Assembly (NCBI GenBank): GCA_028713575.1
Contig: JAQTOB010000005.1
Coordinates: forward strand, 26,978 to 58,977
Reading direction: 5' to 3'
Length of the DNA: 32,000 bases
Source: Patescibacteria group bacterium
GTDB lineage: Bacteria > Patescibacteriota > Patescibacteriia > UBA2591 > UBA6264
The notes beneath the pieces were generated by a model. It saw only the letters and a list, made by a program, of their open reading frames with translations, had not been told where the DNA came from and ran no database searches. Below are positions 15,118 through 18,100 of this stretch, piece by piece (within the stretch, counting starts at the first letter, position 1; every line of letters starts with the position of its first letter). The position numbers were made by a program, and so were the translations under genes.

Positions 15118-18100
15118 TTATAATCTAGAACAAACTCCTTTATAATATGTATGTTTTTTCCTATCATAACAACAACATTCTTCTCCTGTACAGCCGCCAC
15201 AACTAGAACAACCTGTACAAGAGTCTCCACTTTGACACATAGATTCACTATTCCATTCGCAATTGCTGTTGCAAATTTTGCACCGACAAGTCTTCGCTTC
15301 TGCTTCCGTCTCGCCAGGAACACAAGCGCCTCCGCCCTGACAAAGTCCCCAAGAACAACTAAAACAATCTCTTAACCCTAAATTGCAATTGCCGCAAGGA
15401 ACATTAGTTTGTCCGTCGCAAATCTCTCCACAATTGACAGCGCCGTCGCCACAAGAACTAACCCATTTTCCATTACTGCATTTTTGTTGGGGTGTAACGG
15501 GATGACAATTACCTGGGGCATAACATTGATTATTATAAGAACAATAGTTTAAGGAACAACAAACTCCATCAACACAATTTCCGCTGCCGCATTTCAAATA
15601 CGGCCGCGCTCCTTGTCCTGTCACCGCTTTACAAATTCCGTCAGCATTGCAAGTATGACAAATTGAACAAGAATGTTGACCAAGGATATAAGTTTTACAA
15701 GTCCCGTTATCGCAGTAACGACAGCCTTGGTCCCCGCTTGTGCAACCTAAGGCCGTGGCGTCGGCGGCATAAACAGTTTGTCCGGAACAACTACCCGAAG
15801 GATTACATGCCTGACAAACACCACAAGCGCCATGTTCATTATTAGTATAAACCTTACAGGTTCCATTATCGCAATAACGGCAACGTTGGTCTCCTCCGCT
15901 TGTGCAACCTAAAGCCGTAGCGTCGGCGGCATAAGCGGTCGTTGGTTTGCATTTACCGCTTTGACAAATTTGGCAAGGACCACAAGCATGGTGTTCATTG
16001 TCATCATAAGTCTTACAATAATTGCCATAACTGTCATTTTTATCACAATAACGACAGCCTTCATCGCCACTTGTGCAACCTAAAGCCGTGGCTTTGGCGG
16101 CATAAGCGGTTGTTGGTTTGCATTTACCGCTTTGACAAATTTGGCAAACACCACATTTTGCCCCATCTGGTTTTTTCACATTGATTGAAGAACAATTAAC
16201 AGATCCTTCGCATATTTCTTCAACATCGCAAGGCCCGTCCACCGGACGACAAATCACCCTTTGATAAATCTGTGCAATCAAATCAGGTGGACATTTAGCG
16301 GATTCACCCGTACATTTTTCTTCAAAATCACAATCTCCTTTTTTAGGTCCGCAAACAACAGTACTCGCTTTAAAACGATGATTGACATCGCAACAAAGGT
16401 CATCAATATTGGAACACTGCCAATTAGCCGGCCGACAAACACTATCTAAACAATTACCCGAACAACAATCTGAATCAGAACCGCAGCTTGAGCCATTGAT
16501 TTTCTTCTCGCAGCCGTCTGCCCAATTACTATTGCAATTTTCCCAATCAGAATGACAAACCCAACCAGTATAAGTAGAATTACAAGTACAAGAAGCATGG
16601 GGCGGTAAAGCCACTTCCTCAGTATCACAAAATTCTCCACATTGAAGAATTCCATCATTGCAAACCGGCGCTTCTTCTGAAGAGTAATAATAATTGGTAA
16701 TACCAACTTGATCTGATTCATTAATATAAATTTTATCTTCTCCTTGCCAAACAACTTGTCGGTCGCTGTATTCCATGTTGGCACCCAAGGTGTAATAAAA
16801 GCCTAAACAAGCAGGGTCTTCCGGCGCATAATATTGATAAACATGGGAACCGACAGGATGTTCAAAAACCTTGGTCAATGAATTATAACAGGTATTTTTA
16901 CATTGATAATCCGGTTTGTCAGAACAATTAGCGCAAGAACCGTTGAATTTATTAACCGGGTCAAGAGGCAAAGAAGCGCCTAAAATTTTCCCTAAAGTAT
17001 TTTGCCAAGAAGGCCACAAACTGTTGGTTTTCCCTAAAACATAAGTTCCCTGCCCCAAAGCCGGATAAAAACCATAATTCTGTTTATAAGCTTCTACTTT
17101 TTCTTTTATTTCCTCTAAATCATAAATTCTTAAAAGGTCTCTTTGAATTTCTTCTTTCTCTGATGAATTGCTTAAGTTTATGTTAAACTTCCAATTATTT
17201 AATAATTGCTTAAAAATATCCTTTACTTCATCACTGGCCTTGTCGTTATAAGAAATAAGATAAATATAATTATTAATGTATGCCAATCTTCCAAAATCTC
17301 CAAAATCTACATTAACGGCGCCGACATAAGTGGTCCTTCCTTCTTGAAGGCCATAATAACCATCAATGACAATATTTTGGGGAGAACCGAGATTGAGTAC
17401 ATTTTCCTGATACCATTTTGCCGGTGATAAACGTCTGTTATTTTTGATTATCTTTAAACCAATTATGTCGCCGCTGTATTCTATGGGGAAAATAAATTCT
17501 TTAAGCAAATTTTCTTCTTTGCCGATAGAAATCGCCGGTGGTTGCAATTGCGGTAAAAGATTATTTTTTTCTTTTGTATCGCGGCAATATTTTATTCTGA
17601 AATTAGTTTCTTCATCTTCATAAGGACCCCAGGGATTTTCGCAAAGAAAAACATCTACCTGAGATTGGCCGGAAACGGAAACAATCGGGTTAGAACCAAT
17701 AATCTTGGCTGTCGCCGTAATTTGAGATTGGCCATTTTTGTTTTCAGCGGTAATCGTTTCCTTTTCTAAAACTGACCCGCTCACGGAAACTGTCGCCGGA
17801 TTAGAAGATTCCCAAGACCAAGTCCAGTCATAAACATTAGAAATGCCATAAATTTCATTTCCTTTGTCATCATACGTTCTGGCTATTAAATCTTCTGTTT
17901 GGTCCTTTTTTTCAAAAAAGATATTATCAGGGGCAATACTTACTTTTGACAATAAGCAAAGTTCATCTGGTATAAATTCCCAGCTTTGTTTTTGGCCTAA
18001 ATCCAGGCCGTATTGGTTTTTTAACAAACCACTAAGAACAACCACGTATTTTCTTCCCTGGTCAAACAATTCTTGCGTCTTTATCTTAATAACTGTTTCA

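Follow-up and report, generated by a model that had tools for sequence, protein, structure and literature searches.

The subject of this report is the cysteine-rich C-terminal tip of a giant surface protein, encoded on a 32,000-nucleotide (nt) stretch of DNA (hereafter the window) from a Patescibacteria group bacterium of the candidate phyla radiation (CPR). In family and fold, its nearest described counterparts are the D domains of the ADAM proteins and of the P-III snake venom metalloproteases (SVMPs), among them atragin (3K7L), VAP2 (2DW1) and ADAM10/17/22, which belong to the same Pfam family (PF00200) and have the fold predicted for part of the tip. In overall plan the protein recalls the giant adhesins of other bacteria. 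RTX adhesins are giant adhesins with a distal binding region, and giant immunoglobulin (Ig)-repeat adhesins likewise project a terminal region on a very long Ig-like stalk, with intramolecular cross-links for mechanical stability. A 7651-amino-acid (aa) adhesin of the latter kind has been described in Mobiluncus mulieris (PMC10619420). CPR bacteria, for their part, encode many VirB2-like pilins and need type IV pili for host adhesion, and no PrgB-type adhesin has been found for the CPR type IV secretion system (T4SS) (bioRxiv 10.1101/2025.01.22.634366). Against this background, we believe that the tip described here is on balance likely to be the head with which a giant surface fibre, probably an adhesin, attaches to the host; the distal end of this fibre is assembled from small cysteine-rich modules and is the part of the protein in which relatives differ.

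The gene (positions 15118-24894 of the window, on the reverse strand, as are all of the features given below) translates as an open reading frame of 3258 aa. Its product is 100% identical to NCBI entry MDD5172897.1, labelled 'MAG: Ig-like domain-containing protein [Patescibacteria group bacterium]', and is thus already deposited, from Patescibacteria, under a generic annotation. The last 514 aa (15121-16662) contain 82 cysteines, or 16.0%, against 76 cysteines (2.8%) in the other 2744 aa, an exact count that agrees with the one made by hand in an initial annotation of this sequence. The cysteines are also conserved: 81 of the 82 are kept in a strain relative, and most cysteine columns are kept in the 60%-identical tip of an orthologue. 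Because of this conservation, and because the disintegrin match discussed below is lost or reduced on shuffling, we do not regard the enrichment as a product of chance. The GC content rises from a background of about 33% to 35-40% across the giant gene and 40-43% in the tip. A foreign origin of the tip was considered on these grounds and set aside, since the excess probably reflects a composition rich in Cys, Gly and Ala, and since the whole gene is already at 35-40%.

At the other end of the protein (24523-24894), Pfam and a hydropathy scan recognised a signal peptide followed by a membrane hairpin of two helices that resembles VirB2/T4SS_pilin. The hairpin, aa 52-122, matches PF18895 (T4SS_pilin) at 35.3 bits, with a cut-off of 26.6, while NF045849 reaches 30 bits on the N-terminal region and stays under its own cut-off. 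The only hydrophobic segments of the whole protein are aa 7-31, which is the signal peptide, and aa 57-91 and 98-124, which make up the hairpin. There follows a stalk of about 2,600 aa (aa 125-2744; 16663-24522), in which Pfam finds four Big_5 domains, four TIG/IPT domains and a weak Big_2. A cleaved signal peptide followed by a hairpin of two helices predicts an extracellular location for the other 3,100 aa or so, and with this topology the cysteine-rich region would be the end farthest from the anchor. It is in this arrangement that the protein departs from the giant Ig-repeat adhesins: the anchor is an N-terminal VirB2-like hairpin and not an LPXTG motif or a type I secretion system (T1SS) retention module, the head is a mosaic of disulfide modules and not a lectin, vWA or thioester domain, and the organism belongs to an ultra-small episymbiont lineage.

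The stalk ends in a conserved pre-tip domain (aa ~2590-2744; 16663-17127) with the motif 'LPLDPVN...GSHVYQYY', which has no Pfam match and which, in relatives that lack a tip, is the C-terminus of the protein; its motif recalls the C-terminal region of GspG-type pseudopilins. The tip itself opens with a junction motif, CNDGILQCGEFCD (aa 2745-2757; 16624-16662), that is found at the tip start of all tip-bearing relatives. Next come a W-x-NC..W..GCE module (aa 2769-2796; 16507-16590) and a mini-module of six cysteines in the order C-C-CC-C-C, CEKKINGSSCGSDSDCCSGNCLDSVC (aa 2795-2820; 16435-16512), the 'knottin' of the initial annotation. The latter overlaps the disintegrin-like domain, whose Pfam match spans aa 2803-2871 (16282-16488) and whose loop reads CGPKKGDCDFEEKCTGESAKCPPD. 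A second, loop-only disintegrin copy, CRPVDGPCDVEEICEGSVNC (aa 2882-2901; 16192-16251), is delimited by a two-stretch Pfam match and by alignment with loop arrays. It is followed by three tandem units of 52-57 aa with eight cysteines each (aa 2914-3075; 15670-16155), then by a degenerate fourth unit with a CC-rich segment (aa 3076-3147; 15454-15669) that is conserved with P0003, P0004 and other relatives (P numbers denote proteins and L numbers loci in our searches). The remainder consists of the CGDGAVNCGEICDG module (aa 3148-3202; 15289-15453), conserved with P0003, and a C-terminal cluster of 13 cysteines (aa 3203-3258; 15121-15288) that is identical in the strain relative P0192 and conserved in P0003. 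The tandem units share the pattern CxxCxxCxxGxC...ATALGC...CRYCDNGTC..Y..H, with a mean column identity of 78% at the DNA level and a copy number that varies between strains; neither these units, nor the degenerate fourth, nor the last two cysteine clusters match any Pfam or NCBIfam family. The five peptides quoted in the initial annotation all lie at the residues and coordinates given for them, except that its second disintegrin copy, ICRPVDGPCDVEEICEGSVNC, stops at nt 16254 and not at 16257.

The disintegrin-like segment proposed in that annotation is supported. Scanned alone, aa 2795-2878 score 37.2 bits on PF00200, over the curated gathering threshold of 35.1 bits (E 5.1e-9, covering positions 7-75 of the 75 in the profile). 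No match came from the reversed sequence or from five full shuffles, and four shuffles in which only the non-cysteine residues were permuted reached at most 9.3 bits. The match therefore rests on more than cysteine spacing, and chance spacing is ruled out as its source. The best sequence match in the PDB is atragin, a cobra P-III SVMP (phmmer, E 8.8e-4), and the two can be aligned residue for residue through ...CDFEEKCTGESAKCPPD in this protein and ...CDLPELCTGQSAECPTD in atragin. An AlphaFold2 (AF2) model of aa 2793-2905, built from an alignment of 30 sequences, has a pLDDT of 91.5 and a pTM of 0.73, and in a Foldseek search of the PDB ranks 1 to 49 are all P-III SVMPs, ADAM10/17/22 or snake disintegrins; the best match is VAP2 (E 2.4e-4, probability 1.00), and TMq is 0.38-0.56 among the first 23 matches. 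The second, shorter loop is also real, in that it lines up with arrays of such loops found in other proteins from bacteria, and the P0003 orthologue has three such loops.

How far the likeness to the venom and ADAM domains extends can be stated in some detail. The loop has the same form as theirs, C-x5-6-C-D-x2-E-x-C-T-G-x-S-x-x-C-P-x-D, with the extra cysteine of the ADAM 'xxCD' type (GDCD). The cysteine columns of the C-terminal framework (CR...xCD..E.C.G.S..CP.D) are invariant in four family homologues and 30 bacterial sequences, with Gly in place of Arg after the first cysteine in this protein. The N-terminal half, canonically CDCG...C...CC....C.L...C..G.CC..C.F, is likewise aligned by Pfam and with atragin, but here the cysteine doublet is shifted and one canonical cysteine is a histidine, and this half fits a bacterial C.SG.C motif or an inhibitor cystine knot (ICK)-like pattern equally well. 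Beyond the domain itself the resemblance ends. Unlike an ADAM or SVMP, the protein has no pro-domain; Pfam finds no Reprolysin or Pep_M12B metalloprotease domain; no HExxH occurs anywhere in the 3258 aa; a loop-only second copy follows the domain in place of ADAM_CR; and the whole stands at the end of an Ig-like stalk in a bacterium. An ADAM/SVMP-like protease is ruled out by the missing HExxH and reprolysin domain, and the protein is for that reason described as containing a disintegrin domain and not filed as an ADAM or SVMP.

The initial annotation also read the mini-module ahead of the disintegrin loop as a knottin. In part this stands: the C-C-CC-C-C spacing of ICK peptides is there, also in P0003 and P0192, and the resemblance to ω-conotoxins, including the '..DCC(S/T)G(N/S)C....C' string, is reproducible. 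What did not follow is a significant match. In Pfam, the isolated stretch hits neither a knottin nor a conotoxin family at E<=10, and its only PDB sequence match is the ω-conotoxin-like Bu8 (5ZNU) at a non-significant E of 1.9. In the AF2 model, residues 11-30 form a block with a pLDDT of 96-97, and the Foldseek search returned short, locally sub-Å ICK matches, which we assume to fall on the mini-module: the spider toxin 5FZV (25 columns, root-mean-square deviation 0.4, E 0.66, rank 50) and the baculovirus conotoxin-like (Ctl) proteins (27-28 columns, root-mean-square deviation 0.7-0.9, probability 0.97-0.99, E 0.2-0.8), none of them significant. All ICK matches thus lie between E 0.2 and 1.9, and the stretch sits within a protein of 3258 aa where the ICK toxins are secreted peptides.

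Relatives place the doublet elsewhere. At the position of the mini-module, six of the 38 family members (P0005, P0006, P0008, P0009, P0011 and P0012) have C-x5-C-x-SG-x-C-x-DG-V-CC, with the doublet displaced to ...DGVCC, and so do 31 among the top 150 disintegrin-array proteins; the CC-SG arrangement is confined to this protein and its closest relatives P0003 and P0192, and P0004 has C-A. The knottin framework is thus not conserved across the homologues. Moreover, the mini-module sits at the N-terminal edge of the cassette, and the Pfam and atragin alignments count most of it as the first portion of the disintegrin domain. From the model, the stretch may plausibly fold like a knottin. We nonetheless read the mini-module as a lineage variant of a common bacterial six-cysteine module that often stands ahead of disintegrin loops, and not as a separate venom-type element.

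The CGDG motifs fared less well. The initial annotation likened two of them to the myxobacterial disulfide repeat, for which it gave the correct accession TIGR02232, but CNDGILQCGEFCDT and CGDGAVNCGEICDG with their flanks match neither TIGR02232 nor PF13948 even at E<=10, and the whole tip also matches neither. The CGDG....GE.CD string does occur twice, with an extra cysteine before GE. P0031 and P0036, two distant members of the family, carry genuine TIGR02232 repeats in their tips and served as a positive control, scoring 37.8 and 82.4 bits against the cut-off of 20.8. The first CGDG motif is instead the element that opens the tip in every tip-bearing relative, as CGDGxLQCGExCD, and several relatives go on ...CDCG, a continuation that resembles the start of ADAM disintegrin domains.

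The description of the tip as an unusual mosaic of eukaryote- or venom-like modules was an overstatement. We ran a domain profile built from four family members on 1.84 billion representative proteins, a library that carries neither names nor taxonomy, and found 3,394 relatives of the disintegrin domain at E<=1e-3, of which 341 pass the stricter limit of E<=1e-30. Each of the best 150 is matched over 8-33 stretches, most of them falling on the loop. Ten distinct top-ranked proteins were inspected (four read, eight scanned), and all are non-ADAM proteins with tandem disintegrin loops; the eight that were scanned score 138-332 bits on PF00200, and their partner features include OmpA (P0124), FG-GAP (P0142), LTD and a MYXO-CTERM-like end (P0149). 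The modules are therefore not eukaryote-specific, and loop arrays are common and already captured by Pfam. A recent transfer from animals was considered and set aside as well, the nearest relatives inspected being non-ADAM loop arrays, several with bacterial features. These proteins (P0050, P0124, P0142 and P0149 among them) are the closest to the domain by profile search and have the same loop, often after 'NG..C.....C.SG.C.DGVCC'. They differ from it in stringing together 8-33 loops, where the tip has one full domain and one loop among other cysteine modules, and in that none of the ten inspected has the T4SS_pilin plus Big_5/TIG architecture. A search of 5.8 billion proteins with the disintegrin alignment returned just two fragments, and a single-query contig scan only a 27%-identical Polyangiaceae locus. 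Literature searches turned up no work on disintegrin domains in bacteria or on cysteine-rich giant CPR proteins, only a passing mention of such arrays in the Pfam tally of the Minicystis rosea genome paper (PMC8436480).

A different set of relatives was reached through the tandem units. Searched against 5.8 billion proteins, the whole 514-aa tip gave one match, P0001 (402 aa), as cysteine-rich words swamp the index. P0001 contains the 53-aa unit at 41-45% identity, matches no Pfam or NCBIfam family and, as we read its sequence, may begin with an archaeal class III (pilin-type) signal. A metagenome scan with an alignment of the unit then found 17 loci. In the two longest inspected, L009 (5437-7590) and L019 (5389-7173), the unit lies in proteins with a prepilin N-methylation (N_methyl) motif and a lectin-like end: Laminin_G_3 together with DUF2341 in L009, CBM96 in L019. 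In this group of pilin-like proteins the unit is given as 46-56% identical and keeps the form ...ATALGC..G..CR[YR]CDNGxC..Y..H; the L009 gene lies in a minor-pilin cluster, its neighbours including more pilin-like genes, one of them GspH-like, and the L019 protein also carries the C.SG.C.DGVCC motif. These CPR pilin-like proteins are much smaller than ours, at 400-700 aa, and are anchored by a prepilin N-methylation helix. The 53-aa, eight-cysteine unit itself belongs to no Pfam or NCBIfam family.

Comparison with closer relatives places the variation of the protein in its tip. Thirty-eight homologues share the N-terminal anchor and the stalk, and together they form an unnamed family of Patescibacteria T4SS_pilin-anchored giant Ig-like surface proteins, to which the present protein belongs by its PF18895 hairpin, its Big_5/TIG stalk, its conserved pre-tip domain and its conserved gene position. 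Where a tip is present, it begins about 100 aa after the conserved 'LPxDPxN...YQYY' domain, measures 437-903 aa with 10-16% Cys, and is not collinear with the others. The tip of P0003 has three disintegrin loops and one 53-aa unit, against two loops and 3.5 units here; in P0004 the WxNC..W..GCE module is repeated in tandem and recognised as CPL1-like (PF21671); P0008 and P0012 have a PT-HINT domain (PF07591, 51.8 bits in P0008, and in the precomputed Pfam domains of both); P0011 has five tandem repeats that we read as TSP1-like ('W.YSGWG.C...R' / WxxSGWGxC), with no Pfam match; and the tip of a relative has a weak Fer4_6 match (E 0.082). Compared across the family, it is the tip that varies. 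We note in passing that TSP1-like repeats, PT-HINT domains and disintegrin loops, taken together, recall the module sets of ADAMTS-type proteins.

The same is seen between near-identical strains. P0192 (MDD4995958.1, from GCA_028711035.1, locus L004) falls in the same 90% cluster as the present protein, and the gene order ParA-ParB-YqeY-giant gene is common to both. The DNA of the two does not differ at all over codons 1-600 and 1201-2200, and the 3 kb upstream of the gene agree to 99.7%, while codons 2201-3200 (window 15300-18300) contain 138 nucleotide differences, which peak at codons 2651-2850 (82 differences), spanning the pre-tip domain and the first tip modules. P0192 has exactly one extra 53-aa unit, and the 82nd tip cysteine is relocated in it, with a compensating 2-aa indel. 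As far as the aligned sequences tell, the strain differences are a recombination-type mosaic confined to codons ~2200-3200. A diversity-generating retroelement was considered for this variation and ruled out: the differences are mostly ordinary transitions, there is no adenine bias, and there is no reverse transcriptase in the window.

Taken as a whole, these observations suggest how the protein might work. The hairpin would anchor it in the membrane or in a VirB2-type filament, and the stalk would carry the tip outwards. Being even in number, the cysteines could pair in up to 41 extracellular disulfides, on the assumption that these form, and so build a rigid, protease-resistant scaffold, whose exposed loops (the disintegrin loops and the 53-aa units) would bind a structure on the envelope of a host microbe. 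Module swapping, gain and loss of repeats and recombination at the tip would then alter binding specificity between strains. The adhesion reading also draws on the fact that the 53-aa unit is common to lectin-ended type IV pilin-like proteins, and the ligand- or host-binding head proposed in the initial annotation is still the best reading, although an inferred one. A number of points weigh against it. On the whole tip, PF00200 scores only 31.9 bits, below the cut-off and in two stretches, and it is unreported for the full protein. The whole-tip AF2 model, from an alignment of three sequences, is unusable (pLDDT 34), which leaves about 75% of the tip with neither a structural nor a family assignment. 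Several family members end soon after the pre-tip domain and have no cysteine-rich tip, so that the tip is evidently not needed for the core role of the family. The strain mosaic indicates, from the pattern of changes, imported divergent sequence, and positive selection is not demonstrable, since synonymous and non-synonymous codon changes are roughly equal. Lastly, neither T4SS or pilus-assembly genes nor an oxidoreductase were found in the 32-kb window, where the neighbours are housekeeping genes (MreC/D, PBP2, ParAB, YqeY, aminoacyl-tRNA synthetases).

Other explanations have to be weighed against a host-attachment head. Of these, the one we take most seriously, while still thinking it unlikely, is that the tip is a structural cap or cross-linker with no specific ligand, whose disulfides, some possibly intermolecular, stiffen or bundle the fibres or tether them covalently, whether to one another or to an S-layer or matrix. 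The extreme density and even count of cysteines would suit such a cap, as would the last 56 aa, which do not differ between the strains and are kept in the orthologue, and Pfam scans recognise no lectin or other known ligand-binding domain in this tip. Nonetheless, that the tip should be the most variable and module-shuffled part of the family is unexpected for a purely structural cap, and so is the sharing of its cassettes with lectin-bearing pilins. Variability would, on the other hand, sit well with a polymorphic, contact-dependent toxin system, in which the cysteine modules, the conotoxin-like one included, are released or presented to damage or manipulate a contacted cell; the C-terminal variability resembles that of polymorphic toxins, the tips of P0008 and P0012 do contain the pretoxin-HINT domain, and the mini-module has its weak ω-conotoxin/ICK resemblance. 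We consider this improbable. The present protein lacks PT-HINT, Pfam scans find no HINT, toxin or protease domain in it and it has no HExxH, nothing like an immunity gene is apparent downstream, the ICK matches lack significance, and most relatives lack the CC-SG arrangement.

Alternatively, the cysteines might hold metals or Fe-S clusters in place of disulfides. The 53-aa unit begins CxxCxxCxxxxC followed by (K)P, by our own reading one residue off the ferredoxin pattern CxxCxxCxxxCP, and the Fer4_6 match in the tip of one relative, weak as it is, points the same way. Yet this tip matches no Fer4 or metal-binding family at E<=10, the region is predicted to lie outside the cell, downstream of a signal peptide and a membrane hairpin, and the part that could be modelled has a disulfide-type disintegrin fold, so that metal binding strikes us as very improbable. 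Least probable of all, in our estimate, is a true integrin mimic directed at a eukaryotic host. The protein has a KGD at aa 2852-2854 (window 16333-16341), in the loop bounded by Cys 2848 and Cys 2855, which pairs with KDD in the atragin alignment and which we take, from our own alignment, to be at the position of the RGD of RGD disintegrins. However, a cysteine of the ADAM type stands directly after it (KGDCD), the mark of disintegrin-like loops that are not of the RGD kind, and the tripeptide is EGA in the orthologue. Moreover, the domain has its closest relatives in the non-ADAM loop arrays, several with bacterial features, and not in animal proteins, and the CPR bacteria that have been characterised typically live as epibionts on other bacteria or on archaea.

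The surroundings of the gene and the rest of the stalk add some detail. Within the stalk, a cysteine cluster at aa ~740-840 (22375-22677; 20 cysteines in aa 701-900) has the consensus ...C.CC....C...QG.C.G...GL.C.C... and, unlike the tip, is kept across the whole family. An insertion of about 300 aa (aa ~1560-1900; 19195-20217) is missing in P0003 and present in P0004 and P0007, and its only signal is a weak BamB/β-propeller-like match (TIGR03300, E 0.077). Immediately downstream of the giant gene is a gene for a membrane-anchored protein of 191 aa with bacterial TSP3 (Ca-binding) repeats (14519-15094), which occupies the same place beside the orthologous giant gene; any functional tie to the giant gene is at most putative. 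A second downstream gene (12156-14279; 707 aa), with a weak PsbP_2-like match and a duplicated C-terminal motif of about 50 aa (GTLIKY.DQPGVY...KR.FASGEIFE.LGFKWE), also keeps its position beside the orthologue. The order YqeY - giant gene - TSP3_bac - large protein - MreC/D is common to P0003, which makes P0003 the positional orthologue. Downstream, the giant gene is neighboured by MreC/D, PBP2, GreA, LysRS, SerRS and RecJ; upstream are YqeY, ParB, ParA, MFS, UppP and ATP synthase. These housekeeping neighbours and the background GC of about 33% agree with a CPR origin. The parB/parA pair (window 25986-27655) is two genes away from a gene with a VirB2-like anchor. CPR T4SS components are sometimes origin-proximal, according to a recent preprint, and no switch in GC skew occurs within the window.

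That the protein is deposited, that disintegrins are a defined family and that databases hold bacterial members of it is already known. What appears to be new is that a giant CPR protein with a VirB2-like anchor carries a cysteine-rich head that is modular, differs between strains and contains a disintegrin domain, that its 53-aa unit is common to lectin-bearing pilins, and that the variation between strains is located in the tip. That unit is worth defining as a family in its own right. The disintegrin loop, for its part, is a module widespread outside proteins of the ADAM/SVMP type, so that a 'venom-like' signature in a surface protein of a bacterium is not in itself a sign of mimicry of eukaryotes.

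A bolder reading can be put forward, if only tentatively: the tip might be a host-range determinant of an episymbiotic CPR bacterium, drawn from a pool of modules exchanged by recombination among VirB2-anchored giant fibres, type IV pilins and archaeal-type pilins. We hold it equally tentatively that such a pool might comprise disintegrin loops, the 53-aa eight-cysteine unit, the C.SG.C mini-module and CGDG repeats. If this were true, the tip would be a prokaryote-to-prokaryote analogue of the receptor-binding tips of phages, and it could be the 'missing adhesin' of the T4SS-like apparatus of CPR bacteria. Regardless of whether host range is at stake, the family provides a concrete candidate for the recognition and holding of hosts by ultra-small CPR cells: a VirB2-anchored fibre whose distal 500-900 aa consist of swappable disulfide modules, with variation visible even between near-identical strains.

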